From an uncultured Acidobacteriota bacterium (GTDB taxonomy: Bacteria > Acidobacteriota > Vicinamibacteria > Vicinamibacterales > JAHECP01), in contig CAWEUE010000005.1 in assembly GCA_963812185.1 (NCBI GenBank), positions 32,405 to 96,404 of the forward strand: a DNA stretch of 64,000 nucleotides. The letters are read 5' to 3'. Shown one piece after another: positions 42,205 through 63,056 of this stretch; within the stretch, counting starts at the first letter, position 1; every line of letters starts with the position of its first letter. Below the pieces are notes generated by a model. That model ran no database searches, was not told where the DNA came from, and saw only the letters and a program-made list of their open reading frames with translations. Position numbers and translations under genes: made by a program.

Positions 42205-42419
42205 GGGCTTGAGCCCTGCGCCGTGCGGCGCAGACCTGAAGGTCTGCGCTACGTACGGAAGATGGTACGTAGCGCAGGGCTTCAGCCCTGCGTCGTGCGG
42301 CGCAGACCTGAAGGTCTGCGCTACGTACGGAAGATGGTACGTAGCGCAGGGCTTCAGCCCTGCGTCGTGCGGCGCAGACCTGAAGGTCTGCGCTACGTAC
42401 GGAAGATGGTCTGCGCTAC
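42205..42419. repeat. tandem array of a 72-bp unit (2 full copies + 62 nt + restart), each unit made of three perfect hairpins
   Basis: Units run 42205-42276, 42277-42348 and 42349-42410. The three hairpins are CGCAGGGC-TTCA-GCCCTGCG, GCGCAGACC-TGAA-GGTCTGCGC and CTACGTAC-GGAAGATG-GTACGTAG. The acylase stop codon (42416-42418) lies inside the last partial unit. Confidence 0.9.
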
Positions 42420-44845
42420 TTCTCCGGCTGCAGGTCCAGCCGCAACTCGGTGACCGACTCGACCTTGCCCCGGCTGAAGAAGATCGGGAAGTAGCGGCCG
42501 CGCGACCAGAGCCGATAGAGGTCGCGGTAGTGCGGGTCGTTCACGTCGCCCGACTGCCCCGGGTTGTTGAGCCCGACGGAGTTGTCCCAGTCGCTCGCGT
42601 CCGCGATGATCTTGAACGACCCGCCGGAGCGCTGGTTGTCGGTGCTGCCCGTGGCGTCGATGGTGTAGCTGTCACCGCTGCGCGGCTCGTGGCCGACGTC
42701 GTATTTCGCGCGTTGGTCCGCGTTCAGGGCGGGGCTCAGCGGGTGATGGATGAGCGCGCGATGGTACGCGCCGAGCGTCCACTTCGCCGGGTCCGGCCCG
42801 AACCGCTTCGTCAGCTCGTCCACGCTCTCGACGAGGCTCCGCTCCAGCAGCGCGTCCCGCCCGGCCGTCGGGTCGTCGCCGAACCGGCCGTCGGGCGCCT
42901 GCATCCAGCCGATGACCTTGGTGAGGCCGGGCGTCCCGATGAAGGCCCGCGCCTTCTCCGGCACCACCACGTCTCTCACGTCCGCCTGGAGGTGGCGCTG
43001 CCACTGCTCGTAGATGCCGGCCGCCACCGAGTCCTTGTCGAGCACGTCGTCCCAGTCGAGCAGGCGCCGGCGCGCGTCCTCGGCGCGCGCGTCCTTCATC
43101 GGCAGGTCGCGCAGGAGCGGCACCAGCGACCGCGCGGGGATCGACAGCACGTCGTTCTGCAGCTGCACCATGTCCGCCACGGTGAAGCGCCGGCCCGACC
43201 CCAGCACCTCGGCGACGCGCGACGCGCGGAACGCATCGGCCCAGAGATAGTGCATGGCCGCCGGATACGGATAGTCCGGCGGCATCAGGTATTCATTGGA
43301 CGTGTTCCAGAAACCCTGGGCCGGATTGACGACGTGGGGGAGCGCCTCGATGGGGAGGTAGCCGTCCCACTCGTAGCGGCCGTCGCCCGGCACCGGGACC
43401 AGCCCGCTCCAGTGGCGGCGCAGCGGCTCGATGCCGACGGCCTGGTAGCCGATCGTGCCGTCCACGCCGGCCCACACCATGTTCTCGGCGGGGATCCGGC
43501 TGTAGCTGCAGGCGTCGCGGAATTCCTTCCAGTCGCGCGCCTGGTCCATGCGCAGGCTCGCCAGGTACGGCGCCGATCCAATCTCCATCCACGCGGCGCG
43601 CACGGCGTACGCCTTGTGGTGCGCCGTGTCCTCGTAGATCACGGGCCCGTGGCGCGTGTACTTCAGGTCCACCGTCGCCGGCGCCCGCCCCTTCACCGCG
43701 ATCGTGTCCTTGACGACGCGCATCGGCTCCCACGCGCCCTGGTACCTGTACTCGAGCGGGTTGGCGGGGTTCGTGTCGTAGACGTACAGGTCCTCGTTGT
43801 CGTTGCCGAAGACCGTCAGCCCCCACGCGCCGTACTGGTTGTGGCCGATCGACACGCCCGGCAGCGCCGGCTCGCCGCCGCCGATCACGTCCCAGCCCGG
43901 CGCGACGAGGTGCACCCAGTAGCGCAGCGACGGCACCTGCTGCACGCGATGCGGGTCGTTCGCCATCATGGGCAGGCGGCTGGCCGTGCGGCGGCCGGCG
44001 ACGATCCAGTTGTTGCTCCCGATGTCGCGCCGCGCCGCGCGCGGGTCCGCCGCCCAGGCGCCGCTCGCTTCGTCCAGCCGCGCGACCGCGCCGGCGCCTC
44101 CTCTGTACTGCGGCGCGAGCTCGTCCGGCGTGAACCGGATCGGCCGGCGGAAGGCGTTGTAGAGGTCGAGGACGTGGTTCGTGAGCAGGCCGGCGTCGAT
44201 CGCCGGGTCCAGGTCCAGCACGGGGTTCGGCGGCTGGAAGTGCTCGAGGTCCTTCACGCCGTCGGCGCCGAGCAGGTCGACCGCCCGCGCCATCGGGATC
44301 TCCTCGGTGACGTTCTCGAGCAGGCCGTTGAAGCGCGAAATCACGACGGCGGGCGTCCAGTGGCCCGGCGTGACGCCGAGCATGGCGAACTCGGGCGTCA
44401 GCAGGCTCGGGTCCTTCCGCGTGCGGTCGATGTAGGCGTTGATGCCGTCGACGAACGCGCCGACGATCGCCGCGCCGCGCGGGTGGTACCAGGCCAGTTC
44501 CTGCGCGAGGTCGCCGCGGAACATGAAGAGGCGCGTGCCCCGGTCGCGCTCGATCTCGGCCGGCCCGAGGATCTCGGCCACGGTGCCCGTCGCCTGGCGC
44601 CGCCACAGCTCGAGCTGGAACAGGCGGTCGCGCGCCACGTTGTAGCCCTGGGCGAAGAACAGGTCGTGCTCGCTCTTCGCGTAGATGTGCGAGACGCCCC
44701 AGCGGTCCTTCAGGATCTCGACGGGCTGCTCGAGGCCGGCCGCCTGCAGCGTCTGCGACGCGGGCGGCGCGGGCGCCGCGGCCGACAGCGGGACGAGCGT
44801 GACGGCCAGCGCGAGGAACCGGCAGGTGAGCTTCGTGATTCGCAT
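42416..44845 (-). CDS. penicillin acylase family (Ntn hydrolase, S45) protein, secreted
   Basis: It has a signal peptide, RDRLFQLELWRR, and GSNNWIVAGRRT (nucleophile Ser). It is intact over 809 aa. Confidence 0.85.
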   Translation of the reverse strand: MRITKLTCRFLALAVTLVPLSAAAPAPPASQTLQAAGLEQPVEILKDRWGVSHIYAKSEHDLFFAQGYNVARDRLFQLELWRRQATGTVAEILGPAEIERDRGTRLFMFRGDLAQELAWYHPRGAAIVGAFVDGINAYIDRTRKDPSLLTPEFAMLGVTPGHWTPAVVISRFNGLLENVTEEIPMARAVDLLGADGVKDLEHFQPPNPVLDLDPAIDAGLLTNHVLDLYNAFRRPIRFTPDELAPQYRGGAGAVARLDEASGAWAADPRAARRDIGSNNWIVAGRRTASRLPMMANDPHRVQQVPSLRYWVHLVAPGWDVIGGGEPALPGVSIGHNQYGAWGLTVFGNDNEDLYVYDTNPANPLEYRYQGAWEPMRVVKDTIAVKGRAPATVDLKYTRHGPVIYEDTAHHKAYAVRAAWMEIGSAPYLASLRMDQARDWKEFRDACSYSRIPAENMVWAGVDGTIGYQAVGIEPLRRHWSGLVPVPGDGRYEWDGYLPIEALPHVVNPAQGFWNTSNEYLMPPDYPYPAAMHYLWADAFRASRVAEVLGSGRRFTVADMVQLQNDVLSIPARSLVPLLRDLPMKDARAEDARRRLLDWDDVLDKDSVAAGIYEQWQRHLQADVRDVVVPEKARAFIGTPGLTKVIGWMQAPDGRFGDDPTAGRDALLERSLVESVDELTKRFGPDPAKWTLGAYHRALIHHPLSPALNADQRAKYDVGHEPRSGDSYTIDATGSTDNQRSGGSFKIIADASDWDNSVGLNNPGQSGDVNDPHYRDLYRLWSRGRYFPIFFSRGKVESVTELRLDLQPEK

Positions 44846-45604: not shown

Positions 45605-45715
45605 CGTACGACGGGGCACAAAACCTGCACAGGGACGAGGTTTGGCCGATAATCGTTGAGAAGGCCCGACATCGATGAAACCAAGCCCGCGCTCCCGCCC
45701 CGGGGCCGCACGGCC

Positions 45716-47368
45716 ATGAAGTGGATCCGGCCCCTGCCCCGCCGCGTCACCGCACCGCTGAGCGTCCTCGTCCTCGTGGCCTGGGCGGTCCAGATGGCCG
45801 CGCTGGTCGACCGGTCCTACCTGCAGGCCTCGGTGAGCCTCGCCGCCGATCTGGGCCGCTACGGATCGGACGCCGAGTGGCACGGCGTCTACTACCGCGG
45901 CGCGAAGATCGGATTCACCGTCAGCCAGATCGTTCCTCGAGACGACGGGTTCGAGCTGCAGGAGGACGGGCGGCTGGAGATGACGCTGCTCGGCGCGACG
46001 GCCGCCGCGAAGATCCGCACGACCGCGCGCGTGGACCGGGCGTTCGTGCTCCGCTCGTTCGAGTTCTCGCTCGATCCCGGAACCGGTCCGGTGGCCGTCG
46101 CCGGCCGCGTCGAGCGCGCCGGCCCGGACGCGGCCCGGCCGTGGACGCTCGTGCTCGACATCACGTCATCGGGCGCGACGCGGACCGAGTCGCGCGGCCT
46201 CGACGAGCCGCCCCTGCTGACGCTCAACCTGGGCCGGCGCCTGGCGAGCGCGGGACTCACGACCGGCGCCCGGTACCGGTGGATGGCGTTCGATCCGGCC
46301 ACGCTCAGAAACGCGCCCGTCGTGCTCGAGGTGGGACGCCGTGAGCTGGTGCGCGTGGGCGACGTGCCGACCCCCGCGTTTCGCGTCGCGCTCGAGTTCG
46401 CGGGACTGCGCACGACCTCCTGGGTCACCGACACCGGCGATGTGGTGCGCGAGGAGAGCCCGCTGGGGCTCCTGACCGTCCGCGAGCCCGCGTCGACAGC
46501 CACCGTCATGGCCGTGTCCGGCCAGGTGCAGGCCGATCTGCTCAGGGCCGCCGCGGTGGTGCCGGCGACCGGCACGCCCTTCGACGAGCCGCGCAACGTG
46601 CTGCGGATGCGCCTGCGTCTGGACGGCGCCGATCTCTCGAGCCCCGATCTGACCGGCGCCGGCCAGACCGTGGACGGGGACACCATCGAGATCGTCAATC
46701 CGACGAGCCTGACGCCCGGACCGGCGGATCCCGACGCGGCGCGCTACCTCGCGCCGGAGCCGTTCATCGAGAGCGACGCGCCCGAGATCCGCGCCGAGGC
46801 CCGGAAGGCCGCGGGAGACGCCACGGACCGCCGGGTGCAGGCCGAGCGGCTCACCCGGTACGTCAACGGCCTCCTCGACAAGAAGCCGACGATCGGCCTG
46901 CCCTCGGCCCTCGAGGTGCTGCGCACGAAGGTCGGCGACTGCAACGAGCACACCGCGCTCTACGTGGCGATGGCCCGCGCGCTGGGCATCCCCGCGCGCA
47001 TCGCCGTCGGCCTGGCCTACGTGCGCGGCGCGTTCTACTACCACGCGTGGCCGGAGGTGTACCTCGAGGAGCCGGACGGCCGGGGCCTGTGGCTGCCCGT
47101 CGATCCGACGTTCAACGAGTTTCCCGCCGATGCCACGCACGTGCGGCTGGCGCGCGGCGGGCTCGACAAGCAGACGGTCATCCTGCCGCTCATCGGACGT
47201 CTGAAGATGACGATCGTCGAGCTGGATCTGGTTCCCGGGTCGACGCCGATCGTGGTCGGCGCGCCGTCACCGGCGGCGCCGGCGTTCGCGCTGCCCGCGC
47301 TCCCGCTGCCCGCGTCGGGGCGCAAGTCGGACGGATGGTGCGGCTTCCGCTGGTGCTGCGGGAAGTAG
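45716..47368 (+). CDS. transglutaminase-like cysteine protease domain protein with N-terminal anchor
   Basis: GDCNEHTALYVAMARALGIPARIAVG...YYHAWPEVYL (Cys-His core). Confidence 0.8.
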   Translation: MKWIRPLPRRVTAPLSVLVLVAWAVQMAALVDRSYLQASVSLAADLGRYGSDAEWHGVYYRGAKIGFTVSQIVPRDDGFELQEDGRLEMTLLGATAAAKIRTTARVDRAFVLRSFEFSLDPGTGPVAVAGRVERAGPDAARPWTLVLDITSSGATRTESRGLDEPPLLTLNLGRRLASAGLTTGARYRWMAFDPATLRNAPVVLEVGRRELVRVGDVPTPAFRVALEFAGLRTTSWVTDTGDVVREESPLGLLTVREPASTATVMAVSGQVQADLLRAAAVVPATGTPFDEPRNVLRMRLRLDGADLSSPDLTGAGQTVDGDTIEIVNPTSLTPGPADPDAARYLAPEPFIESDAPEIRAEARKAAGDATDRRVQAERLTRYVNGLLDKKPTIGLPSALEVLRTKVGDCNEHTALYVAMARALGIPARIAVGLAYVRGAFYYHAWPEVYLEEPDGRGLWLPVDPTFNEFPADATHVRLARGGLDKQTVILPLIGRLKMTIVELDLVPGSTPIVVGAPSPAAPAFALPALPLPASGRKSDGWCGFRWCCGK

Positions 47369-47467: not shown

Positions 47468-48220
47468 ATGATTGCAGTGTCCGACCTGGTCAAGACGTTC
47501 GGCGACTTCACCGCCGTCGACGGCGTGACGCTCGAGGCGCGGCCGGGCGAGATCCATGGCTTCCTGGGCCCCAACGGCGCCGGCAAGACGACGACCATCC
47601 AGATGATCGCCGGCCTGCTCAAGCCCACCGCCGGCCGCATCGTCGTCAACGGGCACGATCTGGCCACCGACACCGAGGCGGCCAAGGCCTCGCTCGGCTT
47701 CATCCCCGACCGGCCCTTCATCTACGAGAAGCTCACCGCGGGCGAGTTCCTGCGCTTCCACGGCGGCCTGTACGGCATGGACGGCGACGGCGTGGGCGAG
47801 CGCGTGGCGGAGATGCTCGATCTGTTCGAGCTCGCCGAGTGGGAGGACGAGCTGGTCGAGAGCTTCTCGCACGGCATGCGGCAGCGCCTGGTGATGAGCG
47901 CGGCCTTCCTCCATCGCCCGCGCGCCCTGCTGGTGGACGAGCCGATGGTCGGCCTGGACCCGCGCGGCGCCCGGCTGATCAAGGCCGTGTTCCGCCACAT
48001 GAGCGAGCGCGGGGTGGCCATCCTCATGAGCACGCACACCCTGGAGGTGGCCCAGGAGATGTGCGACCGCATCAGCATCATCGTGAAGGGCCGGATCATC
48101 GCGAGGGGAACCGTCGAAGAGCTGCAGCGGATGGCCGGCAGTCCGGACGCGCAGCTCACGCCGGTGTTCCTCAAGCTGACGGGCGGCAGCGGGCTGCAGG
48201 AGATCGATGAAGCCTTCTAG
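47468..48220 (+). CDS. ABC transporter ATP-binding protein
   Basis: GPNGAGKTTT (Walker A), FSHGMRQRL (signature) and LLVDEP (Walker B) are present. Confidence 0.9.
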   Translation: MIAVSDLVKTFGDFTAVDGVTLEARPGEIHGFLGPNGAGKTTTIQMIAGLLKPTAGRIVVNGHDLATDTEAAKASLGFIPDRPFIYEKLTAGEFLRFHGGLYGMDGDGVGERVAEMLDLFELAEWEDELVESFSHGMRQRLVMSAAFLHRPRALLVDEPMVGLDPRGARLIKAVFRHMSERGVAILMSTHTLEVAQEMCDRISIIVKGRIIARGTVEELQRMAGSPDAQLTPVFLKLTGGSGLQEIDEAF

Positions 48221-49931
48221 CCCCGACGCGCACGGCGCCTTCGCGTTTCCCTACCTGCTCCTGCCAGGCGTGTGGTCGTCCCGCAACCGCGCGCGCCGGC
48301 GCGAGCGGGGCGACCTGGCCCGCGCCCTGCTCTTCGGGGCCGTCGGCCTCGTGGTCTGCGCGACGCTGTTCGCGGGCGCGTTCTGGCTGACCCTGCAGCT
48401 CGACGCCTGGGAGGAGCTCGGCGACTTCCTGCTCCGCCTCGGCCTGTCCTGGGTGTTCCTGGCGGTCCTGTCCTTCCTCGCGTTCAGCGGCGTCGTCACG
48501 GCGCTCTCGACGTTCTTCCTGTCCGAGGACCTGCGTCTGCTGCTGGCCGCCCCGATCGCCGGGCGCCGGCTGTTTCACGCGCGGTTCGTCCGCACGGTGG
48601 GGCAGGCCTCGTGGATGGTCGTCATCTTCCTGATGCCTGTGCTGATGGGCGTGGGCGTGGCGCGGTGCGCGCCGGCCGGCTTCTATCTCACGGCGGCGCT
48701 GACGATCCCGCCCTTCGCCGTCATCCCGGTCGCGCTCGGGAGCGCCGTCACCCTGTTCCTGGTCAACGTGTTCCCGGCCCGGCGCGCGCGCGACATCCTG
48801 ATGCTCATGGGCCTGCTGTTCGCGGCCAGCCTCGTGCTGCTCCTGCGCTACGTGCGGCCGGAACAGCTCCTGCGCGTCGAGTCGCTGCCCGACATCATGG
48901 GCTTCTTCAGGACGCTGCAGTCGCCGATCACACCGCTCCTCCCGTCGTCCTGGGCGGGCGAGGCGCTGTTCGCAGGTCTCAAGGGCGGCTTCGACCTGTT
49001 CCATGGCGGCGCGCTGTGGACCACCGCCCTGGGCATGACGGTGCTGCTCGGCGCGGCCCACGAACGGTGGTACTTCGCCGGCTTCAGCAAGTCCCAGGAG
49101 GCGCGCAAGGCGCGCTTCACGCGGCTGGCGCTCGTCGACCGCGTGGCGCCCCGGCTGCCGCTGTCGGCCGTGCGCCGCCACCTGCTGATCAAGGACCTCA
49201 AGGTCTTCCTGCGGGACGTCACGCAGTGGTCGCAGCTCCTGCTGCTGTGCGCCCTCGTGCTGGTCTACCTGTACAACTTCCGCGTGCTGGACCTCGGGCG
49301 CATTCCGTACATGAGCGGGGTGATCAAGAACGTGTACGCGTTCGTCAACCTGGGCCTGGCCGGCCTGGTGATGGCGACCGTGGCGGTGCGGTTCGTCTTT
49401 CCGGCGGTCTCGGCCGAGGGCGCCGCCTTCTGGATCATTCGCGCCGCGCCGATCTCGCTCGGCGACTTCCTCTGGTCGAAGTTCTGGACGGGACTCGTGC
49501 CGGTGCTGGTCCTGACCGAGGGGCTGACCATCGTGGCCAACGAGCTCATGGGGATCGATCCGTTCCTCAAGGTCGTCACCGCCCTGGCGGTCGTCTTCAT
49601 GAGCCTGGCCCTCGTCGGGCTCGCCACCGGCCTCGGCGCCCGCTATCCGCGCTTCCGCGCCGACAACATCACCGAGGTCGCGGGATCCTACGGCGGGGTC
49701 GCGTTCATGATCGGCGCGGTGCTCTTCCTCGCGATCCTGCTCGTGCTCGTCGGCTGGCCTTCCTCCCTGTACCTCTGGCACCACCTGAGGCACCGGCCGT
49801 TCACAGTCCTCGAGCAGTCCCTCATGGCCGCGTCGCTTCTGGCGGCGGCCGGCGTGAGCCTCGCGACGTGGTGGCTGTCCATGCGGTGGGGCGTGCGCGC
49901 CCTCCAGCAGATGGACCGCACGCCCGTGTGA
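48207..49931 (+). CDS. polytopic ABC exporter permease (putative-ABC-exporter type)
   Basis: It overlaps the ATPase stop by 14 nt, has at least 10 hydrophobic helices, and is intact over 574 aa. Confidence 0.7.
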   Translation: MKPSSPDAHGAFAFPYLLLPGVWSSRNRARRRERGDLARALLFGAVGLVVCATLFAGAFWLTLQLDAWEELGDFLLRLGLSWVFLAVLSFLAFSGVVTALSTFFLSEDLRLLLAAPIAGRRLFHARFVRTVGQASWMVVIFLMPVLMGVGVARCAPAGFYLTAALTIPPFAVIPVALGSAVTLFLVNVFPARRARDILMLMGLLFAASLVLLLRYVRPEQLLRVESLPDIMGFFRTLQSPITPLLPSSWAGEALFAGLKGGFDLFHGGALWTTALGMTVLLGAAHERWYFAGFSKSQEARKARFTRLALVDRVAPRLPLSAVRRHLLIKDLKVFLRDVTQWSQLLLLCALVLVYLYNFRVLDLGRIPYMSGVIKNVYAFVNLGLAGLVMATVAVRFVFPAVSAEGAAFWIIRAAPISLGDFLWSKFWTGLVPVLVLTEGLTIVANELMGIDPFLKVVTALAVVFMSLALVGLATGLGARYPRFRADNITEVAGSYGGVAFMIGAVLFLAILLVLVGWPSSLYLWHHLRHRPFTVLEQSLMAASLLAAAGVSLATWWLSMRWGVRALQQMDRTPV

Positions 49932-52452: not shown

Positions 52453-52684
52453 GGTCCGGGCCGGCTTCGGCGGATTCCAGTCCATCCGCAGGGTCTCCTA
52501 CGGCTTCGTCATTCGGCACACCGGGCTCGAAGGCGCCCTGGCGTATAGTTGTCGGCAGCGGCCGGCGGCAGGGAGATGAGCTGGCTGGCCGGGCATCCAC
52601 ACGTAAACCTACCGGCGCCATTCGGGACATGTGCGGTGCGATGGCGAGCCTTTGCGGACGTTCGCGCTGAGCTGGCGAGGGTCC

Positions 52685-54070
52685 ATGCCCCTGACTGAGA
52701 GCACTCCGCGGCTGCTGGTGGTCGACGACGAGCCGTCCGTGCTCAAGCTCGTCGAGCGATTTGCCAGGCTCCAGGGCTTCGAGGTCGTCGTTCGAGACAG
52801 CGGGCAAGAGGCGCTCGCGTGTTTCAACGATGTGAGGCCGGACGCCGCGCTGGTCGACCTTCGCATGTCCGGCCTCACCGGCATCGACGTGCTCCGGGCC
52901 ATCCGCGCGATCGATCCCGACTGCGAGGTCATCCTCATGACCGGCGACGCGACCGTGGACACCGCGATGGACGCCGTCAAGGCTGGCGCGCTCGACTACC
53001 TGGGCAAACCGCTGGACTTCGACCGGCTGCGCGAGCTCCTCGTCACGGTCCGCGAGAAGATCGGTCGGCGCGAGCGGCTGCTGGAAGTCGACGCTGTCCT
53101 CGCGAAGCGATTCGAGTTCCACGGGATGATCGGTCGCAGCCCCGCGATGCAGGAGCTGTTCGACTTGATTCGGCGACTGGCGCCGCACGTGCACACCGTG
53201 CTCATCGTCGGGGAAACCGGCACCGGCAAGGAGCTGGTCGCCAGGGCGCTCCAGAAGCTGGGCTCGCGCCGCGATCGGCGGTTCGTCACGGTGAACTGCT
53301 CGGCCGTCGTGGAGACGCTGTTCGAGAGCGAGCTGTTCGGCCACGTCCGCGGGGCGTTCACCGGGGCGACCGAGACGAAAGTCGGGCTCTTCGAGCACGC
53401 CGACGGGGGGACGCTGTTTCTCGATGAAGCGGGCGAGCTGCCGCTCACGCTCCAGGCGAAGCTGCTGCGGGCGGTCGAGCAGGGTGAGGTGCAGCGCGTC
53501 GGGTCGCTCGACAGCCGCCGCGTCGACGTGTGCGTGATTGCGGCGACCAATCGCGATCTCAGGGCCGAATCGGCGGCGGGACGGTTTCGCGCCGATCTGT
53601 TCTACCGTCTCAGCACCCTCGAGCTCCGCATCGCGCCGCTGCGCGAGCGCGCGGCGGACATCCCGTATCTGACCGCTTATTTCGTGGGGCAGTTCGCCAA
53701 GCGGCTGAAACGCACGATCACCGGCGTGACGCCCGCCGCCGAGCGGCTCCTGCAGCAGGCGCCGTGGCCCGGCAACGTCCGCGAGCTCAAGAACATCGTC
53801 GAGCGGGCGTGCATCATGAGCGAGAGCCGGATTCTGACCGAACGCGAGTTCGCCGCCGCGATGTCGACAGCGCCGCCCGCGGTCGCGGCGGGCGCGAGCG
53901 CGTCCGGCGCGCCGCCCTCCGACCCGCACCTGTTCTCGACCGCGCAGCGGGATCAGATCGAACACGTCCTGCGTGAGGCTCACGGCAACAAGACCGCGGC
54001 GGCGCAGCTCCTCGGCATCAGCCGTCGCTCGCTCTACCGGTGGCTCGACCGGTTGAACATCGGCAGGTGA
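52685..54070 (+). CDS. sigma-54-dependent response regulator (NtrC family), no adjacent kinase
   Basis: A receiver domain (LLVVDDEP...DLRMSG), an AAA+ domain (GETGTGKE, ESELFGH, GGTLFLDE) and a Fis-type HTH (AAAQLLGISRRSLYRWL). Confidence 0.9.
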   Translation: MPLTESTPRLLVVDDEPSVLKLVERFARLQGFEVVVRDSGQEALACFNDVRPDAALVDLRMSGLTGIDVLRAIRAIDPDCEVILMTGDATVDTAMDAVKAGALDYLGKPLDFDRLRELLVTVREKIGRRERLLEVDAVLAKRFEFHGMIGRSPAMQELFDLIRRLAPHVHTVLIVGETGTGKELVARALQKLGSRRDRRFVTVNCSAVVETLFESELFGHVRGAFTGATETKVGLFEHADGGTLFLDEAGELPLTLQAKLLRAVEQGEVQRVGSLDSRRVDVCVIAATNRDLRAESAAGRFRADLFYRLSTLELRIAPLRERAADIPYLTAYFVGQFAKRLKRTITGVTPAAERLLQQAPWPGNVRELKNIVERACIMSESRILTEREFAAAMSTAPPAVAAGASASGAPPSDPHLFSTAQRDQIEHVLREAHGNKTAAAQLLGISRRSLYRWLDRLNIGR

Positions 54071-54252: not shown

Positions 54253-54735
54253 ATGTTCCGCACGTCAATTGCGCTGTTCTTGACCACGTTCCTCCTGGCA
54301 ACGCCCGTCGCGGCCGCCGGACAGAGCTCACTCGCCACCGCCGCCACCGATGCCGCCGCGAGCGTGGCGGTGTCTTCGGCCGGTGCGACCGTGGCGCCGC
54401 CGGTGCACACCCTGCTCCGCCCCAACGCGCGGCCGTCAGTCCTTCCGTCGATGTATGTGGGCCTCGCGGCACTGCAGGGCTACGATGCGTATTCCACGCT
54501 GAAGGCCTTGAATCAGGGAGCGGTGGAAGCCAATCCGTTGATGGGCGGAGTCGCCGGCCATCCGGCCGCGCTGATCGCCGTCAAGAGTGCGGCGACGTTC
54601 GCGTCGATCTACGCGTCGGAGCGCCTGTGGCGCGACCATCATCACAAGGCCGCGATCGTGCTGATGGCCGTGACGACTGGCGCGATGGCCATGGTCGCCG
54701 CGCACAACGCGTCCGTCATCCGCGTGCAGCGCTAG
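54253..54735 (+). CDS. small exported/membrane protein (possibly DUF5658-like)
   Basis: It has a signal peptide, EANPLMGG, and C-terminal TM helices. Confidence 0.5.
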   Translation: MFRTSIALFLTTFLLATPVAAAGQSSLATAATDAAASVAVSSAGATVAPPVHTLLRPNARPSVLPSMYVGLAALQGYDAYSTLKALNQGAVEANPLMGGVAGHPAALIAVKSAATFASIYASERLWRDHHHKAAIVLMAVTTGAMAMVAAHNASVIRVQR

Positions 54736-54786: not shown

Positions 54787-56169
<1,383 letters not shown>

Positions 56170-56176
56170 GTGTGCG

Positions 56177-57490
56177 TCACTCCCGTGAGAGCGTCAGGGC
56201 GAACGTGACACGGCCGGGCTCGTTCGCGGCCACCCGCAGGTCGCCGCCGTGGCCGCGGGCGACGTTCTTCGCGATCGCCAGCCCGAGACCGGTGCCGTGG
56301 CGCCTGGTGGTGAAGAACGGCTCGAAGATCCGCGACAGCGCGTCGGGGGGAATGGGGTCGCCGGAGTTCTCCACCTCCAGCACGACGCCGGGCCCGTCGG
56401 CGCGGGCGCGCAGCTCGATCCGCCCGCCGGCAGGCGTGGCCTCGACGGCGTTGAGCAGCAGGTTCAGCAGCGCGCGCTCGATCTGCCCGCGGTCGACGGT
56501 CGCGGCGAGCGCCGCGTCGGCGTCCACGGCAATCGCGAGGTCCTTCTGCGAGGCCTGGACCCCGGCGATCTCCGCCACGTACCCGAGGATCTCCGCCAGC
56601 GACAGCGCGCTCCGCTGCGGCGGGTTCGGCCGCGCGTAGGAGAGAAAGTCGCCGGTGAGCCGCTCGAGCCTCGCCGCCTCGCCGCCCGCGATGCCCAGCA
56701 GCTCGCGGCGCTCCGGCTCGCCCAGCTCGGGGCGCGCCGCCGTCGCCAGCGCGCTGCTGATGACGGCCACCGGGTTGCGGATCTCGTGCGCGACGGCGCT
56801 CGACAGGCGGCCGACCACGGCCAGCTTCTCCTCGATCATCAGCTGCTCGCGCGTGCGCTCCAGCTCGTCGAGGTTCTCGGCCAGGCGGCGCCGGCCGCCG
56901 CGCAGCTGGCTCATGAGCAGCCAGACCGTGAGCCCCATGAGCGCGTAGACGAGCGAGATCACGCCCGCCTCGAAGTACTCGCTGACGGGCACCGGCGGGT
57001 GGAACCGCGCGAAGTGCCACACCCAGAGGAACGTCACCGAGTCGGCCACGAGGATGACCCCGACCGAGACCGGCAGGCTGAAGCGGAAGGCGGCCTGGAG
57101 CACGGGCAGGGCGAGCAGCACGAAGTACGGGCTGTCCTCGCGGTTGGTCAGGAACGTCAGCAGGATCGCCAGGCCGACGTCGAGCACGATCACCGTCCAG
57201 ACGGTGGCGTCCTGGCCGCGCGGGCCGAGCGGCGTCTGGCGGGCCCAGAGCCACAGCAGCGCGAGCATCTGCAGCAGGAACGCGGCGCCCAGCGTGACGA
57301 GGAGCGTCGGCGACGGCGGCCCGAGGAGTGACGAGAAGACGGCGTGCAGCAGCAGGAGCGCCGCCAGCACGAACAGGTTCAGCGCGGCGAAAGCGATCGC
57401 CTGCTGGCGGAACGACTCGAAGTCGTCGCCCGTCAGGACCGGAATCGCCCGCCGCGCTGGTCCCGCCTCATCGCCGTGGCGCGCCCGCAT
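56177..57490 (-). CDS. sensor histidine kinase with polytopic N-terminal membrane domain
   Basis: About 6 TM helices, an H-box (SSAVAHEIRNP), an N-box (LLNLLLNAVEA) and a G-box (GTGLGLAIA). Confidence 0.88.
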   Translation of the reverse strand: MRARHGDEAGPARRAIPVLTGDDFESFRQQAIAFAALNLFVLAALLLLHAVFSSLLGPPSPTLLVTLGAAFLLQMLALLWLWARQTPLGPRGQDATVWTVIVLDVGLAILLTFLTNREDSPYFVLLALPVLQAAFRFSLPVSVGVILVADSVTFLWVWHFARFHPPVPVSEYFEAGVISLVYALMGLTVWLLMSQLRGGRRRLAENLDELERTREQLMIEEKLAVVGRLSSAVAHEIRNPVAVISSALATAARPELGEPERRELLGIAGGEAARLERLTGDFLSYARPNPPQRSALSLAEILGYVAEIAGVQASQKDLAIAVDADAALAATVDRGQIERALLNLLLNAVEATPAGGRIELRARADGPGVVLEVENSGDPIPPDALSRIFEPFFTTRRHGTGLGLAIAKNVARGHGGDLRVAANEPGRVTFALTLSRE

Positions 57491-58044
57491 CAGCGCCTAT
57501 CGTGCTCGGTTTCTCCCAGATGCGCAACGCCGGCCTCGGCGATTGGAGCCGGGGGCATGAGCGCGCGCACGCCGAACTGGTGCACCAACCGGCCGCCGTT
57601 GTGCGCCGTGTTGACGAGCAGCAGCGCGCCGGCGCCGTAGAGCACCAGGAACGCCAGCGGCAGCACCGTCGTCGTGAGCCGCGTGTCGGTCCGCTTGAGC
57701 AGGCGCGGCGCGGCCAACAGGACGACGAAGACCGCCGACAGCACCGCGAACACGACGCGCGTGCGCTCGGCCATCGACTCGTGCGTCTCGAGCACCTGGG
57801 CCATGCCGGGGCTCCGCTCGGCGAGCTGGCCGGCCGCTTCGCCGGTCTCGACCGCGACGAAGACGGCCGCGGTCCCCAGGAGCAGCAGCACCATCGCCGC
57901 CACCAGGTACGGCCGGGCCCTGGCCGGCGCCTTCATTGCGCCAATCAGGATGAAGACGGGGGCGACGAGCAGCAGCGCGATCGGGAAGTGGACGATCAGC
58001 GGGTGCAGACCGTCCCAGCTCGGAATGGGCGGAAACTGAAACAT
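57490..58044 (-). CDS. DUF2231-like membrane protein
   Basis: HPLIVHFPIALL N-terminal motif and 4 TM helices. Its stop overlaps the kinase ATG by 1 nt. Confidence 0.6.
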   Translation of the reverse strand: MFQFPPIPSWDGLHPLIVHFPIALLLVAPVFILIGAMKAPARARPYLVAAMVLLLLGTAAVFVAVETGEAAGQLAERSPGMAQVLETHESMAERTRVVFAVLSAVFVVLLAAPRLLKRTDTRLTTTVLPLAFLVLYGAGALLLVNTAHNGGRLVHQFGVRALMPPAPIAEAGVAHLGETEHDRR

Positions 58045-58101: not shown

Positions 58102-58707
58102 TCAGTTGACCGCGACGTACTTGTCCTTGGGGTTGAAGCAGGACGGGCACTTCTCGAAGTTCATCTGGACCGTCGTGTAGCCGCAGATCGTGCACACGTA
58201 GTAGTCCATCGCCTTCGAGCCCTTGAGCGTGTCGAGCTTGTTCAGCGTCTCGGTGTACAGCCTGGCGTGCTCCGCCTCGGCCGTCTTCGCGTAGTTGAAG
58301 GTCTGGATCGCCGCGCGGTTCCCCTCGGTGCGGGCCAGCTGGAGGAACGACGGATACATCGTGTCGCGCTCGTAGGTCTCGCCCTTGATGGCGGCCTCGA
58401 GGTTCTCCCGCGTGGACTTCACGTCCGGGGTCTCGATGTCGGCCTTGGGCGCTCCGCCCATCTGCGTGATCACCACCGCGTGGTTGCCGGCGTGAATCTC
58501 CTCCGCGCGGGCCGCGGCCCGGAAGAGGCTCGCCACCGCGCCGTAGCCTTCCTGGTCGGCCTTCTGGGCGAACGCGAGGTAGCGGGCGTGGGCGTTGCTC
58601 TCGCCGTTGTAGGCGGCCTGGAGGTTGTCGAGGGTCCCGGCGGCGGCCGCGCCTGGCGCGAGCAGCGCCACCGCGAGGGCCAGCGAAGCGAACATGAAGC
58701 TCTTCAT
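58102..58707 (-). CDS. rubrerythrin-family protein with an N-terminal Sec-type signal peptide
   Basis: MKSFMFASLALAVALLAPGAAAA, then ferritin-like E...EXXH pairs (GESNAHARY, EEIHAGNH, GETYERD, EAEHARLY) and a C-terminal CTICGY...CPSC rubredoxin-like site. Confidence 0.8.
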   Translation of the reverse strand: MKSFMFASLALAVALLAPGAAAAGTLDNLQAAYNGESNAHARYLAFAQKADQEGYGAVASLFRAAARAEEIHAGNHAVVITQMGGAPKADIETPDVKSTRENLEAAIKGETYERDTMYPSFLQLARTEGNRAAIQTFNYAKTAEAEHARLYTETLNKLDTLKGSKAMDYYVCTICGYTTVQMNFEKCPSCFNPKDKYVAVN

Positions 58708-58768
58708 TTCGGGTCGTCTCCGTTCGTGAAATGGCGATTCGGACATCGATCTCGCCCTTGCCCTGTAG

Positions 58769-58784
58769 GGCACGGACGATGCCA
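58769..58784 (-). promoter_or_regulatory. candidate sigma-54 promoter TGGCAT-N5-GTGCC
   Basis: On the minus strand it reads TTGGCATCGTCCGTGCCCT. GG-N10-GC spacing is correct. It lies ~60 nt upstream of the rubrerythrin ATG, and the operon ends with an NtrC-type activator. Confidence 0.5.
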
Positions 58785-58866
58785 ACCGGAGGCTCCCGGC
58801 AAGTGCTTGACAGGAAAGGACAGGCGGGAAGATGGCCGCGGCCGGGCCGTCCCGGCGTCCGAGGAT

Positions 58867-60333
58867 TCAGACCGCGGCGTCTGAAAGTTCGGACACGTCT
58901 GCCGCGTTTGGCGCGCGCCGGCCCGCAATGGTCAGCACCACCAGCGGCGGCGCGGCCACGGCCCAGCCCCTGACGAGCAGCACCGGCACGTCGAGACCGA
59001 GCGTCGCGTGCAGGCCGCCGAGCGCCGCGAGCAGCAGGATCTGCGACGCGAAGACGAGCGCCGCGCCCGCCGCGAGGGTGGTCCACCGGCGCGCGAGCCC
59101 CGCGGCCCACAGCAGCGCCAGGAGCAGGCTCGCCTGGTACACCGGCAGGATGTGCAGCGCGCCTTGCGCGTCGCCGGGCGCCGCGAGCGTCGCGAGGGTC
59201 CACGGCAGCAGCCGCTGGACGAGGCGCGCCGCGAAGAGCAGCGTTCCCGCGTAGAGCGAGCCCGCCACGAGCGCGAACGCGAGCGCGGCGGCGATGGCCG
59301 CGAGCGTCCGGCGCACCGCGTCCTGTGCGCGGACGGCTCCAGCGCCCGAGGCGCGCAGGCCCCAGAACGCCGCGCCGAGGACGAGCGCGGCAAAGACCAG
59401 GAACTGATAGAAGCCGTGCGCGACGAAGAGCGGCTCGGCGGCGAGCGCCGGCGGCAGCGCCAGCGCCAGCAGGCGGAGCACGCCGAGGGCGGCGAACAGC
59501 GGGATCGTCACCGCGACGCCCACCCAGCGCGCCGCGCGCGGGATCGGGGCCGTCAGCACGCCGGCCAGGTAGACGGGGACGAGCGGCGTCGCGATGCAGG
59601 CCTGCGTGACGAGAAACGACCCGCGCGCGGTGACCAGCGTGTTGCCCGCCGCGGAGGCGCCGACACCGAGACCGGCGATCATGCGAGCCGCCGCGCGCGC
59701 GATCCAGCCGCCCGCGAGGGCAATCGTCGCGCTCGACATGATCCACGGCGCCAGCAGGCCGAAGGCCAGCAGCAGCGCCGCCGCCGCGGCGGCGAACCGT
59801 CCGAGCGTTCCCGGCGGCGTCCACTCCCGCAGGAGCGATCGGCCGGCCGCCGGCGACCACCGGATCCAGACCAGGAAACACGCCGCGACGGCCGCCACCA
59901 GGATCGACGGCCACACGTAGAGGTGCAGGGGCGTGAACCAGCTCGACGCGGGCCCCACGAACGCCAGCGTGACGATGCGGGCGATGTTGAACGGGACCAC
60001 GACCGCGAGCAGCCCGGCGCCGCCCGTGAGACGGCGCCGCCAGGGCGCCGGGTAGGCGAGGATGGCGCCGAGCCCCAGCGCGATCGCGTCGGCGCCGCTG
60101 CAGCTCAGCGTGACCGTCAGCGGGAGCGCGGGCCCGCCGCTGTACCAGAGCGCGATGGCCGCCTGGACGTGCGTGAACGGGACGAGCAACGCGGTCTTCA
60201 CCCAGTTGGCCTGCAGCAGGGCGAAGAAGAGCAGCTCGAGCGCGAGCGCCGACAGCAGATAGCGGACCGGCGACATCACCGCGTCTTCCGCGTGATCGCC
60301 GCCGCGAACGGCCGGTGTCGCGTGCCCGGTCAC
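58867..60333 (-). CDS. exosortase/archaeosortase-family membrane protein, apparently with two tandem exosortase-like modules
   Basis: Module 1 has TLSCSGADAIAL, VPFNIARIV and PLHLYVWP. Module 2 has LVTQACIATPLV, LGVLRLLAL and FVAHGFYQF. The start is GTG 60333 or ATG 60276. Confidence 0.6.
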   Translation of the reverse strand: MTGHATPAVRGGDHAEDAVMSPVRYLLSALALELLFFALLQANWVKTALLVPFTHVQAAIALWYSGGPALPLTVTLSCSGADAIALGLGAILAYPAPWRRRLTGGAGLLAVVVPFNIARIVTLAFVGPASSWFTPLHLYVWPSILVAAVAACFLVWIRWSPAAGRSLLREWTPPGTLGRFAAAAAALLLAFGLLAPWIMSSATIALAGGWIARAAARMIAGLGVGASAAGNTLVTARGSFLVTQACIATPLVPVYLAGVLTAPIPRAARWVGVAVTIPLFAALGVLRLLALALPPALAAEPLFVAHGFYQFLVFAALVLGAAFWGLRASGAGAVRAQDAVRRTLAAIAAALAFALVAGSLYAGTLLFAARLVQRLLPWTLATLAAPGDAQGALHILPVYQASLLLALLWAAGLARRWTTLAAGAALVFASQILLLAALGGLHATLGLDVPVLLVRGWAVAAPPLVVLTIAGRRAPNAADVSELSDAAV

Positions 60334-60632
60334 GACGGTCTCTCGATCGAGGAACGCAAGCTCACCTCGAGCGCCCAGTCGGCGGCGAGGGCGCGCACGC
60401 CGTAGCGGACGCGATCGGCGAGGCCCTCCCGCGACCGCCAGTGTACCCTGGACCAGGGGCGGACGCGGCGATCGAGCCGCCGCCCTTCGGCCTGCTCGTG
60501 CTCGGAAAGCGCTTCGAGCGCGTCGAGGCGCTGGCGCCGGCGACGATTGCCGTGCGCGGACGGGCGCTCCAGTCCGTGGACGTGCTGCGCGGCTGGCGCG
60601 CGCGGGCCGGGCTGGGCTAGGATGGCTGAAAC

Positions 60633-63056
60633 ATGCACGCCCTGTGGAGCGACTGGCGGCTCGCCGCCCGAAGCCTGCGCCGCGCGCCGGGCTTCACGGC
60701 GGTCGTCGTCCTGACGCTCGCCCTCGGCATCGGCCCGACCACGGCGATCTTCAGCGTCGTGTACGGCGTGCTGCTGCGGCCGTTCCCGTACCGCGCGCCG
60801 GAGTCGCTCGTCGTGATCTCGGCCGAGCGCACGTTCGCCGGCCAGGTGCGGGGCGCGAACTACTCGGCGCGCGAGCTCGACGGGTGGCTGGCGCGGGCGC
60901 GCGCGTTCTCGTCGCTCGGCATGTGGGGCGGAACCGGGTACAGCCTGCGCACGGACGCGGGCACGCAGACCGTCGGCGCCGCCTACGTGTCGGACGGCTT
61001 CTTCGCGACGCTGGGCGTGCCGATGGCGCTCGGCCGCGCCATCGGCCCGGCGGACGCCGGCTCGCCGGTCGCCGTCGTCAGCCATCGGCTGTGGCGGCGC
61101 GAGCTCGGGTCGAGCCCGCAGGCCGTCGGCCGGTCGATCCGGCTCAACGGCCAGCCCTACACCGTCATCGGCGTCGCCCCGCCCGACTTCCGGTTTCCGT
61201 CCGAACGGGACGACGTGTGGACGCCGCTCGCCTACGCGCAGCGGCTCGGCCGCGAGCCGTGGGTGAACAACCCGGCGGGTGGCGGGTTCCATCTCGTCGG
61301 CCGGCTGCGCCCGGGCGTGACGCTGGCGGCCGCGCGTGACGACGCCGCGCGCGTGGCCCGCGCGATGGCGCCGGAGTTCGCGAGAATCAGCGGCGGGCGG
61401 CGGCCGCTCCTCTTCACGTTGGTCGGCTGGTTCACCGACACGACGAGACCCGCGCTGCTGATGCTCGCCGCCGCGGTCGGGCTCGTGCTCGTCGTCGCGT
61501 GCGCCAACACCGTCAACCTGCTGTTCGCCCGGCAGACGTCCCGCTCGCAGGAGATCGCCGTGCGCCGGGCGCTCGGCGCGCCGCCGTCGCGTCTGCTGTC
61601 GTCGGCGCTCGCCGAGGCCTCGCTCGTGGCCCTGGCCGGCGGCGGCGCGGGCGTGCTGCTGGCGGTCGGGGGCGTGAGGGCGCTGTTGTCGCTGTGGCCG
61701 GCCGGGCTGCCGAGGGTGGACGCCATCCGCGTGGACGGCCCGGTGCTGGCCTTCGCGCTGGCGCTGTCGATGGGGCTGGCGCTGGCGTGCGCGATCGGTC
61801 CCGGGGTCCGCGCGCTCGGCTACCGCCTGGCGGCGGGGTTGCGGCCGGCCGGCGCCGCCTCCACGCGCCGCGGCCGCCGCCTCCGCTCGGCGCTCGTCGT
61901 CGTGCAGATCGCCGCGTCGGTGATCCTGCTGGTCGGGGCGGGCCTCCTGGGCCGCAGCTTCGTCCGCCTGCTGCGGTCGGACGTCGGCGTCGGGACCAAC
62001 CGCGTCGCCCTCGCGGACCTGGCCTTGAGCGTCGACCGACAGGTCTCGCCCGCCATCCAGGTCGAGACGGTCGATCGCGTGCTGGACGGCGTTCGTCGGA
62101 TCCCCGGCGTCGTGCGCGCGGGCGTGGGCACCAGCCTGCCGCTCTACGGCGCCCGCTTCCGCTACACGCTGAAGGGCGTGCAGACGGGCGACGGCCCGCC
62201 GCGGGACTACGACGTGGACGCGATCGCCGTGACGCCCGGCTTCTTCGCGGCGCTGGAGCTGCCGCTCCTGCGCGGGCGGCTGTTCACGGACGGCGACACC
62301 GCGGCGAGCCCGCCGGTGATGATCATGAGCGCCCGCACCGCGCGGCGGTTCTTCGGCGACCGCGACGCGATCGGACGCACGCTGTCGCTGCCGACCGCCG
62401 GCGGGCCGGGCCGCGCCGCCGCGACCCTCGTGGGCGTCGTCGGCGACGTCAAGTACAACGCGCTCGACGCCGCCGCCGACGGCGGGATCTACCGCCCGTA
62501 CACGCAGCAGGCGTATCAGTACGTGTACCTGGCCGCGCGCACGGCGGGCGACCCGCGCGCCGTCGGCGGCGCCCTCCGCCGCGCCGTGGCGGCCGTGGAT
62601 CCGTCGATTGCGGTGGACCACGTGCGGACCTTCGACGACGAGGTGGCAAGCGCTTCGGCGGAGCCGCGGTTCCGCACGCTGCTGCTCGTCGCGCTCGCGG
62701 CGCTCGCGCTCGCGGTCGCGTCGGTGGGGCTCTACGGCGCCGTCGCCTACTCCGTGTCGCTGCGCCGGACCGAACTGGGGATCCGTGTGGCGCTGGGCGC
62801 GACGCCGGCGAACCTCGTGCGGCTGGTCGTCCGGGAGGGCATGGCGCTCGCGTGTGTGGGCGCCGGGATCGGCGTGGCGGGCGCCGCGGTCCTCTCGCGG
62901 GTGCTCCAGCGCTTCCTGTACGGCGTCACGCCGCACGACGCGGTGTCGCTGCTCGCCGCGCCCACCGGGCTGCTGCTCCTCGCCGCGCTGGCCAGCTACG
63001 TGCCGGCGCGCCGCGCGGCCGCGGCCGATCCGATCGCCGCGCTCAGGCGCGAGTGA
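60633..63056 (+). CDS. ADOP-family duplicated FtsX/MacB-type ABC permease (807 aa)
   Basis: WRLAARSLRRAPGFTAVVVLTLALGIGPTTAIF, two FtsX-like bundles, intact. No recognisable PadR gene lies upstream. Confidence 0.85.
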   Translation: MHALWSDWRLAARSLRRAPGFTAVVVLTLALGIGPTTAIFSVVYGVLLRPFPYRAPESLVVISAERTFAGQVRGANYSARELDGWLARARAFSSLGMWGGTGYSLRTDAGTQTVGAAYVSDGFFATLGVPMALGRAIGPADAGSPVAVVSHRLWRRELGSSPQAVGRSIRLNGQPYTVIGVAPPDFRFPSERDDVWTPLAYAQRLGREPWVNNPAGGGFHLVGRLRPGVTLAAARDDAARVARAMAPEFARISGGRRPLLFTLVGWFTDTTRPALLMLAAAVGLVLVVACANTVNLLFARQTSRSQEIAVRRALGAPPSRLLSSALAEASLVALAGGGAGVLLAVGGVRALLSLWPAGLPRVDAIRVDGPVLAFALALSMGLALACAIGPGVRALGYRLAAGLRPAGAASTRRGRRLRSALVVVQIAASVILLVGAGLLGRSFVRLLRSDVGVGTNRVALADLALSVDRQVSPAIQVETVDRVLDGVRRIPGVVRAGVGTSLPLYGARFRYTLKGVQTGDGPPRDYDVDAIAVTPGFFAALELPLLRGRLFTDGDTAASPPVMIMSARTARRFFGDRDAIGRTLSLPTAGGPGRAAATLVGVVGDVKYNALDAAADGGIYRPYTQQAYQYVYLAARTAGDPRAVGGALRRAVAAVDPSIAVDHVRTFDDEVASASAEPRFRTLLLVALAALALAVASVGLYGAVAYSVSLRRTELGIRVALGATPANLVRLVVREGMALACVGAGIGVAGAAVLSRVLQRFLYGVTPHDAVSLLAAPTGLLLLAALASYVPARRAAAADPIAALRRE

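Follow-up and report, generated by a model that had tools for sequence, protein, structure and literature searches.

Two tandem exosortase-like modules in one membrane protein of an uncultured Acidobacteriota bacterium

The gene at positions 58867 to 60333 (minus strand) of a 64,000-nucleotide stretch of contig CAWEUE010000005.1, which comes from an uncultured soil bacterium of the phylum Acidobacteriota and the order Vicinamibacterales, encodes an exosortase-family protein that contains two homologous exosortase modules in tandem. The whole of this stretch is referred to below as the window. The protein has a new architecture within a known enzyme family, and the canonical form of the family, found in the relatives of the window protein, defines a new operon type. 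Our analysis indicates that the protein is probably a pseudo-heterodimer in which two minimal, XrtH-like exosortase cores are covalently fused and joined to a four-helix domain that appears to be specific to its family. Searches of the literature found nothing on tandem exosortases, on an exosortase together with an S-adenosylmethionine (SAM) decarboxylase, on XrtH with IPTL-CTERM, or on DUF3494 with an exosortase, the single mention being of an IPTL-CTERM S-layer protein; no published description of the two-module architecture or of the conserved operon of the relatives was found.

Two homologous modules and their conserved residues

An earlier note on this DNA, made from the sequence alone, had described two sets of the ordered Cys/Arg/His signature of exosortases and archaeosortases in the protein. 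All six of the quoted motifs are present in the claimed order: LSCSGADA (C78), PFNIARIV (R119), and PLHLYVWP (H137) in the first set, and TQACIATP (C246), LGVLRLLAL (R287), and FVAHGFYQF (H306) in the second. The codons of the six residues were verified directly in the DNA. The second set does follow the same order as the first, but it is found 168 residues after it, and not approximately 200 as had been stated. From Cys to Arg the distance is 41 residues in each set, and from Arg to His it is 18 residues in the first and 19 in the second.

When the two halves of the protein were searched separately with family hidden Markov models (HMMs), both matched exosortase/archaeosortase models, and the proposal of two tandem exosortase-like modules is borne out by these matches and by the alignment of the halves profile to profile. 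Module 1 scored 46.1 bits against the superfamily signature TIGR04178, for which the curated cutoff is 23 (43.1 bits for the whole protein). Its match to XrtH, a model of 158 positions, reached 59 bits and extended over model positions 1-154. By the TIGR04178 cutoff, module 1 is a member of the exosortase/archaeosortase superfamily. PF09721, the other model that had been named for this check, gave only an E-value of 0.15 on the first half, and Pfam as a whole returned no match to the complete protein. Module 2 of the window protein, scanned alone, matched XrtH (E = 8e-5), XrtX (2e-4), and XrtY (9e-3). Because a single weak match was considered insufficient for this module, module 2 of 31 family members was scanned separately, and matches were obtained to XrtH in 29 of them (best E = 1.5e-12), XrtX in 29, ArtB in 27, ArtE in 21, and TIGR04178 in 21 (best E = 6.4e-7); the E-value of ArtE against module 2 of the relative L009 was 2.1e-6. 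All 11 of the families matched by module 2 of these members are exosortases or archaeosortases, and no other family was matched. By these independent model matches, module 2 is also a member of the superfamily.

The internal duplication that the note had suggested is supported by the alignment of module 1 with module 2 in hhalign, which gave a probability of 92.7% (E = 4.3e-7) in local mode and 94.5% (E = 1.6e-8) in global mode, where 141 of approximately 150 columns were aligned. The alignment pairs Cys with Cys, Arg with Arg, and the cytoplasmic W-R-x-R loops with one another, and places the His residues within two positions of each other. A BLASTP comparison of module 1 with module 2 found no similarity, and the duplication is thus visible to profile methods only. 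The repeat of the exosortase core is far beyond chance. Between the modules lies a linker (alignment columns 170-230) that varies from a few residues to approximately 50 and is short in the window copy; in the relatives it is K/R-rich and Pro-rich, and the mean K/R count is 5.6. In the model of the window protein, the linker has a predicted local confidence (pLDDT) of 59. Its variable length points to a spacer that joins two separately folding units.

From a database search came 48 full-length relatives with lengths of 435-496 aa and approximately 40% identity. When one genome per species was scanned, 111 loci were obtained, 80 of which were kept, nearly all from Vicinamibacterales or Acidobacteriota. 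Conservation was counted over 117 distinct family sequences that are only approximately 40% identical overall. The triad of module 1 (C78, R119, and H137) is present in all 117, as are C246 and R287 of module 2, and H306 is present in 116. Both modules thus carry the ordered, nearly invariant Cys/Arg/His set by which the superfamily is recognized (10.1101/2023.06.07.544157). In addition, the window protein keeps all 44 invariant columns of a 41-sequence alignment, and these are distributed across all three of its domains. Because both Cys-Arg-His sets are strictly conserved, both modules are probably catalytic.

It is unlikely that module 2 is instead a structural pseudo-enzyme, that is, a duplicate without chemistry of its own whose role is to hold module 1 or the substrate in place, as in the many fused pseudo-dimers that have lost one of their two sites to decay. 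Module 2 is the more diverged of the two (14.9 bits compared to 46.1 against TIGR04178), and its Cys motif, TQEC[IV]xTP across the family, is unlike the CSGAD of module 1, as would be expected of such a scaffold. However, decayed sites usually lose residues of this kind, and here the second triad persists almost without exception among sequences at approximately 40% identity. The identical Cys-to-Arg spacing of the two modules also argues against decay.

The databases label members of the family as 'hypothetical protein' or 'exosortase/archaeosortase family protein'. In NCBIfam release 20.0 the generic signature alone reaches its own cutoff for the family, and no specific model does. The window protein is XrtH-like and we do not file it as XrtH, given its score below 86 bits and its two modules in a chain of 469-488 aa.

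The open reading frame was confirmed, with a product of 488 aa from the GTG at 60333 or 469 aa from the ATG at 60276 (M20). The ATG is the likelier start, and a database protein of 469 aa (P0001) is 100% identical to the product that begins at M20. The G+C content at third codon positions (GC3) is 0.94, which matches the real genes of the window (70-75% GC). The chance that two single-module genes were fused by a sequencing or assembly error is negligible. Frameshifted long-read contigs do give wrong gene calls in this family, though by splitting genes, while the fused form is shared by 117 distinct sequences that come from independent assemblies, and the window gene itself recurs, without a single nucleotide difference, in two other sequencing runs. 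As both of these other occurrences are nucleotide-identical, they offered no between-sample variation for a test of selection on the window copy.

Two further observations concern the gene family in other assemblies. Many 'proteins' of 100-286 aa that correspond to module 2 (P0203-P0282, and L092 3163-6199) start inside the first helix of that module. Natural split forms, in which module 2 and the C-terminal domain would be a separate protein, were considered for them and rejected; the source contigs are long-read contigs that carry strings of fragmented gene calls, and the short proteins are therefore regarded as frameshift artefacts. The Vicinamibacterales assembly CBDHFM01 holds six tandem-exosortase loci on different contigs (L039, L043, L062, L063, L066, and L069) that are 88-95% mutually identical and are either a recent amplification or redundant contigs. 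Each has a methyltransferase gene upstream, and L062 and L069 are near genes for larger proteins (570 and 721 aa) with VPALPL-type tails.

Predicted structure, topology and the C-terminal domain

AlphaFold2, run with the family alignment, gave a model of the whole protein with a pLDDT of 81.7 and a predicted template modelling score (pTM) of 0.68, and a model of module 2 alone with values of 86.9 and 0.72. The two modules were compared at the level of secondary structure and topology. In the models, both show the same order of elements, namely a helix, an amphipathic helix, the Cys loop, a short helix, the long Arg helix, a loop, and the His helix, and the Cys loop of module 2 has three short strands. 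The Cys of each module is located just ahead of a helix, the Arg near the end of the long helix, and the His at the opening of a helix. In the superfamily, the triad residues are on the extracytoplasmic face, where they lie at transmembrane helix ends.

Counted over the 117 sequences, K/R is abundant at both termini, in the linker, and in the loops at residues 94-100, 262-268, 327-345, and 411-418. Between these, in alternation, lie acidic loops that are poor in K/R, and C78, H137, C246, H306, and the DxQGA motif of the C-terminal domain are all found on loops of this second kind. Since the Cys and His loops of both modules are on the K/R-poor side, both triads would lie on the same, outer face of the membrane, and we infer that the two cores are parallel in the membrane with both triads directed outward.

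Residues 336-488 comprise four helices that show no similarity to either module; this domain was no part of the earlier note's description. Its invariant residues are D388-x-Q390-G391-A392 (codons 59158-59172) on a K/R-poor loop, P397, Q400, R455 (codon 58969-58971), and P462. No Pfam or NCBIfam model matched the domain, and the possibility that it is a third, degenerate exosortase module was rejected on an hhalign probability of 0.4% against the modules. A search of 1.84 billion representative proteins gave 267 matches, the best 150 of which look like full-length members, fragments, or methyltransferase fusions. From these sequence matches, the four-helix domain appears to be specific to this family.

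Sorting signals in the relatives and the place of the window copy

The neighbourhood of the gene was counted in the 49 species-level loci that have enough flanking DNA. A SAM decarboxylase (AdoMetDC) was present in 40 of these loci, an orthologous class I methyltransferase in 42, a DUF6311/YfhO-like membrane protein of 655 aa in 34, and a DUF3494 protein (PF11999) in 36. The decarboxylase is bona fide (TIGR03330, 83.5 bits against a cutoff of 75.65), and the DUF3494 gene adjoins the tandem exosortase gene in 67 of 91 loci. Most often the genes are arranged as DUF3494 (divergent), AdoMetDC, tandem exosortase, DUF6311, and methyltransferase (L003-L086; for example L009 8783-14110 and L003 8753-12189). 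There are two other arrangements, namely AdoMetDC-methyltransferase-exosortase, and DUF6311 divergent from exosortase-methyltransferase. The exosortase is fused to the methyltransferase in P0006, P0026, P0033, and P0048, and P0037 carries an AdoMetDC domain too.

At the C-terminus of the DUF3494 proteins, the motif V-P-[TA]-L-[PS]-[EQ]-W-A (or Q-x-F) is followed by a hydrophobic helix and then by a cluster of Arg residues. When five of these tails were tested on the TIGR04174 model for IPTL_CTERM (cutoff 20.5), four scored 25-34 bits and the fifth 19.0, and all five also touched the 'midcut-by-XrtH' model. In the TIGRFAMs description, IPTL-CTERM is the signal assigned to exosortase H. An IPTL-like tail is encoded within 6 kb of the enzyme in 35 of the 49 species-level loci (approximately 71%). 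Because XrtH is the best model for both modules and IPTL tails are found beside the enzyme, the canonical family is best read as a dedicated, XrtH-derived sorting enzyme with its substrate encoded next door and with three enzymes that possibly build or modify the acceptor.

The partner methyltransferases (L003 11365-12189, L009 13307-14110, L001 8730-9731, and 54 others) have the Gly-rich motif I, which binds SAM in class I methyltransferases, replaced by an invariant K-T-D-L-W-D-E-x-x-N-T-R, and the remainder of the protein resembles Methyltransf_11. With AdoMetDC encoded next door, the acidic residues of this motif may select decarboxylated SAM.

The partners could also be taken to mean that the family is not a protein-sorting protease at all, and that its Cys, Arg, and His act on a lipid- or glycan-linked intermediate with DUF3494 merely co-regulated. 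AdoMetDC, the class I methyltransferase, and the YfhO/DUF6311-like protein are indeed small-molecule or envelope-polymer enzymes, three clades keep some of the partners with no IPTL-tail gene within 10 kb, and the window is without a substrate. We nevertheless consider such a role quite unlikely, because an IPTL-CTERM tail beside the enzyme in approximately 71% of the species-level loci is the classic pairing of a sorting enzyme with its substrate, and because both modules match the sorting-enzyme family alone.

Under the preferred reading of a fused pseudo-heterodimer, each core would begin with a transmembrane helix, an amphipathic helix, the Cys loop, a short helix, and a cytoplasmic Arg-rich loop ([YS]-x-x-W-R-x-R), and would be completed by a long helix with the Arg close to the outer end, then a short loop on the outer side, and finally a helix with the His as its opening residue. 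The protein would act as a protease or transpeptidase whose two sites may cooperate, with one cleaving the substrate and forming the acyl-enzyme and the other passing the product to an acceptor; alternatively, each active site may handle a different substrate. By analogy with the relatives, the substrates would be secreted proteins with an IPTL-CTERM-type end in which V-P-T-L-[PS]-[EQ]-W precedes a transmembrane helix and a cluster of Arg residues. As the window copy is a divergent orphan, the genes for its probable IPTL-CTERM-type substrates would have to lie elsewhere in this genome, beyond the 64 kb of the window.

A more specific version of this model is put forward only tentatively, and we regard it as rather doubtful. 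Minimal exosortases would be obligate dimers, and the fused chain would divide the labour between its sites, with one cleaving the IPTL-CTERM signal to a thioester and the other presenting the acceptor. In the canonical operon this acceptor would be an amine-bearing envelope molecule, built by means of decarboxylated SAM (from AdoMetDC), the unusual methyltransferase-fold protein, and the YfhO-like membrane enzyme. If this were true, it would be the first exposure of what an exosortase attaches its substrate to.

Several points weigh against the reading of the window protein as a fused pair of XrtH-like sorting enzymes. The TIGR04178 score of its module 2 is below the cutoff (14.9 compared to 23 bits), and the XrtH score of the whole protein is below the cutoff of that model (62.7 compared to 86 bits; 72.2 for the relative L009). 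The parallel orientation of the cores is based on the positive-inside rule and not on coordinates. Exosortases have no solved structure, and the Protein Data Bank (PDB) contained no relative by sequence profile or by Foldseek with the full model, the top matches being unrelated transporters with E > 0.1. We know of no XrtH-type enzyme that has been characterized biochemically. Tail scans of the 64 kb confirmed that the window holds no PEP-CTERM-type substrate, as the note had observed, and no IPTL-CTERM-like tail was found in any frame either. A tblastn search with partners from three loci detected no AdoMetDC, orthologous methyltransferase, DUF6311, or DUF3494 in the window; the lone match was a generic SAM-binding motif at 30037-30363. 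Since the window is without these partners, the function proposed for the enzyme in this genome is drawn from analogy with relatives whose identity to it does not exceed 45%.

The window copy is thus not in a canonical AdoMetDC-linked operon, in which the partners are found within approximately 6 kb, and is a divergent orphan. Its closest relatives, P0002 and P0004, have the methyltransferase directly downstream. The window copy could accordingly be a functionless remnant, an orphan paralogue that has drifted after the loss of its operon, given that no usual partner gene is present within the 58 kb searched on one side and the 3.7 kb on the other, and that it is the deepest singleton of the family, no relative being more than 45% identical to it. 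This is very unlikely, as the 488-codon reading frame is intact, its GC3 is that of a real gene, and every invariant column is retained. Moreover, a clade of relatives (L072, L073, L080, and L083) is also without partners and is 86-96% identical internally, and from this conservation orphan copies can evidently persist. Directly downstream of the enzyme, this clade encodes a conserved 849-aa protein with many transmembrane helices and a soluble C-terminal part (L072 11418-13967, L083 11411-13957), which has no Pfam match and looks like a GT-C-type membrane transferase.

The positions of the genes around the window copy are listed in Table 1, along with the remaining large genes of the window. 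The rubrerythrin-like gene shares the strand of the exosortase gene and lies 82 bp downstream of it, and its product has a hydrophobic, signal-like N-terminal segment, MKSFMFASLALAVALLAPGAAAAG, which suggests export, an unusual property for rubrerythrins. The DUF2231, kinase, and regulator genes that follow are tightly packed, with an ATGA overlap and a 7-bp gap, and are probably in one operon with the rubrerythrin gene. The sigma-54 pair had been likened in the note to the PrsK/PrsR regulators of PEP-CTERM systems, and this analogy does not hold. The kinase scored 86 bits against PrsK (TIGR02916, cutoff 300), over the kinase core only, and the regulator scored 363 against PrsR (TIGR02915, cutoff 502.6), with higher scores against AtoC (420) and NtrC (410); nor is the adjacency of the pair conserved in the relatives. 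The two proteins scored higher against AtoS/AtoC/NtrC and are generic and AtoS/AtoC-like. An XrtA/PEP-CTERM system under PrsK/PrsR control was rejected for this locus on the missed cutoffs and on the absence of a PEP-CTERM tail and of exopolysaccharide (EPS) genes from the window, in which no exopolysaccharide or glycosyltransferase cluster was found. A scan for sigma-54 promoters gave matches in the window at chance level, none of them upstream of the exosortase gene.

The rubrerythrin, DUF2231, kinase, and regulator neighbours are not conserved beside the homologues. ADOP permeases do recur there, yet they are abundant in these genomes. A second sigma-54 regulator and a DUF5658 gene are convergent with the first regulator gene, so that two NtrC-type regulators are encoded within 3.5 kb. 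Upstream of the exosortase gene, an 868-aa reading frame (60330-62936, minus strand) was rejected as spurious because it runs antisense over the ADOP permease gene; long false reading frames are common in this high-GC window.

Table 1. Features of the tandem exosortase gene and of its surroundings, in window coordinates
Feature	Position	Strand	Evidence or remark
Whole open reading frame, tandem exosortase-family protein	58867..60333	-	P0001 100% identity; GC3 0.94
Module 1, complete minimal exosortase core, residues 20-165	59839..60276	-	TIGR04178 46.1 bits; XrtH 59 bits
Cys78 codon, CSG motif, putative nucleophile of module 1	60100..60102	-	117/117; codon checked
Arg119 codon, N-x-x-R motif, module 1	59977..59979	-	117/117; codon checked
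His137 codon, LHxYxWP motif, module 1	59923..59925	-	117/117; codon checked
Inter-module linker, residues ~166-174, predicted cytoplasmic	59812..59838	-	Variable alignment columns 170-230
Module 2, diverged second exosortase core, residues 175-335	59329..59811	-	XrtH/XrtX matches; hhalign against module 1
Cys246 codon, TQ[EA]C motif, putative nucleophile of module 2	59596..59598	-	117/117; hhalign onto Cys78
Arg287 codon, module 2	59473..59475	-	117/117; hhalign onto Arg119
His306 codon, VH[AG]F.Q motif, module 2	59416..59418	-	116/117; at most 2 positions from His137 (hhalign)
C-terminal four-helix domain, residues 336-488	58870..59328	-	Profile searches; invariant residues
Rubrerythrin/nigerythrin-like gene	58102-58785	-	PF02915 and rubredoxin-like end; nigerythrin model 150 bits, cutoff 340
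DUF2231 membrane protein	57490-58044	-	
Histidine kinase, multi-helix N-terminal membrane domain	56177-57490	-	
Sigma-54 response regulator	54787-56169	-	
Second sigma-54 response regulator	52631-54070	+	
Small DUF5658 membrane protein	54253-54735	+	After second regulator
ADOP-family duplicated permease, divergent upstream	60633-63056	+	TIGR03434 792 bits, cutoff 622
Penicillin-amidase family protein	42416-44845	-	
Transglutaminase-like protein	45656-47368	+	
ABC_tran_2 ATPase	48207-49931	+	
Second MacB/FtsX-type duplicated permease	11814-14504	+	

Significance and comparison with known systems

Exosortases are widespread and have no solved structure; their status as transpeptidases is unsettled and their attachment partner is unknown (10.1101/2023.06.07.544157). 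That two cores with intact triads are fused and strictly conserved is direct evidence, at the genetic level, for a possible two-core functional unit, and it suggests that small exosortases work as pairs. For structural studies, the fused protein offers a naturally occurring dimer in a single chain. The canonical relatives form a compact and testable system with one enzyme, an adjacent IPTL-CTERM DUF3494 (ice-binding-like) substrate, and three candidate anchor-building enzymes, and their operon could open the chemistry of attachment to experiment.

XrtH (TIGR04177) is one of the known systems closest to the window protein. No model scores higher for either module, its Cys, Arg, and His come in the same order, and NCBIfam pairs XrtH with IPTL-CTERM, the model that is passed by the tails of proteins encoded beside the relatives of the window protein. 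However, XrtH is a single module of approximately 158 aa, whereas the present chain of 469-488 aa has two modules and a C-terminal domain of approximately 150 aa, and the signal in the relatives is V-P-T-L-[PS]-[EQ]-W and not the IPTLxxWG of XrtH systems. To our knowledge, the AdoMetDC/methyltransferase/DUF6311 operon is not part of XrtH systems.

XrtA/EpsH (PF09721, TIGR02602/TIGR03109) belongs to the same superfamily and is likewise a multi-pass membrane enzyme; the catalytic Cys/Arg/His triad of exosortases has been inferred from conservation (10.1101/2023.06.07.544157). In contrast to the window protein, XrtA has a single catalytic core that is preceded by additional N-terminal helices. 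Fusions of XrtA to EpsI are sometimes found, and the enzyme acts on PEP-CTERM substrates, lies in EPS loci, and is under PrsK/PrsR control. The window protein reaches PF09721 with an E-value of only 0.15 and has neither a PEP-CTERM protein nor an EPS locus in the window. The archaeosortases ArtA, ArtB, and ArtE (TIGR04125, TIGR04144, and TIGR04124) give weaker matches to both modules, but they are archaeal, single-module enzymes with PGF-CTERM or VPXXXP-CTERM signals, and the window protein scores far below their cutoffs. ArtA has experimental support, as it is required for the C-terminal cleavage and lipid attachment of a PGF-CTERM protein (10.1101/2023.06.07.544157).

The canonical Vicinamibacterales members of the family (for example OFW22785.1, 'hypothetical protein') are mostly encoded in the AdoMetDC operon beside an IPTL-CTERM DUF3494 protein, and some are fused, whereas the window copy is without these neighbours and is at most 45% identical to them. 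They nevertheless share with it the same three domains and the same invariant residues.

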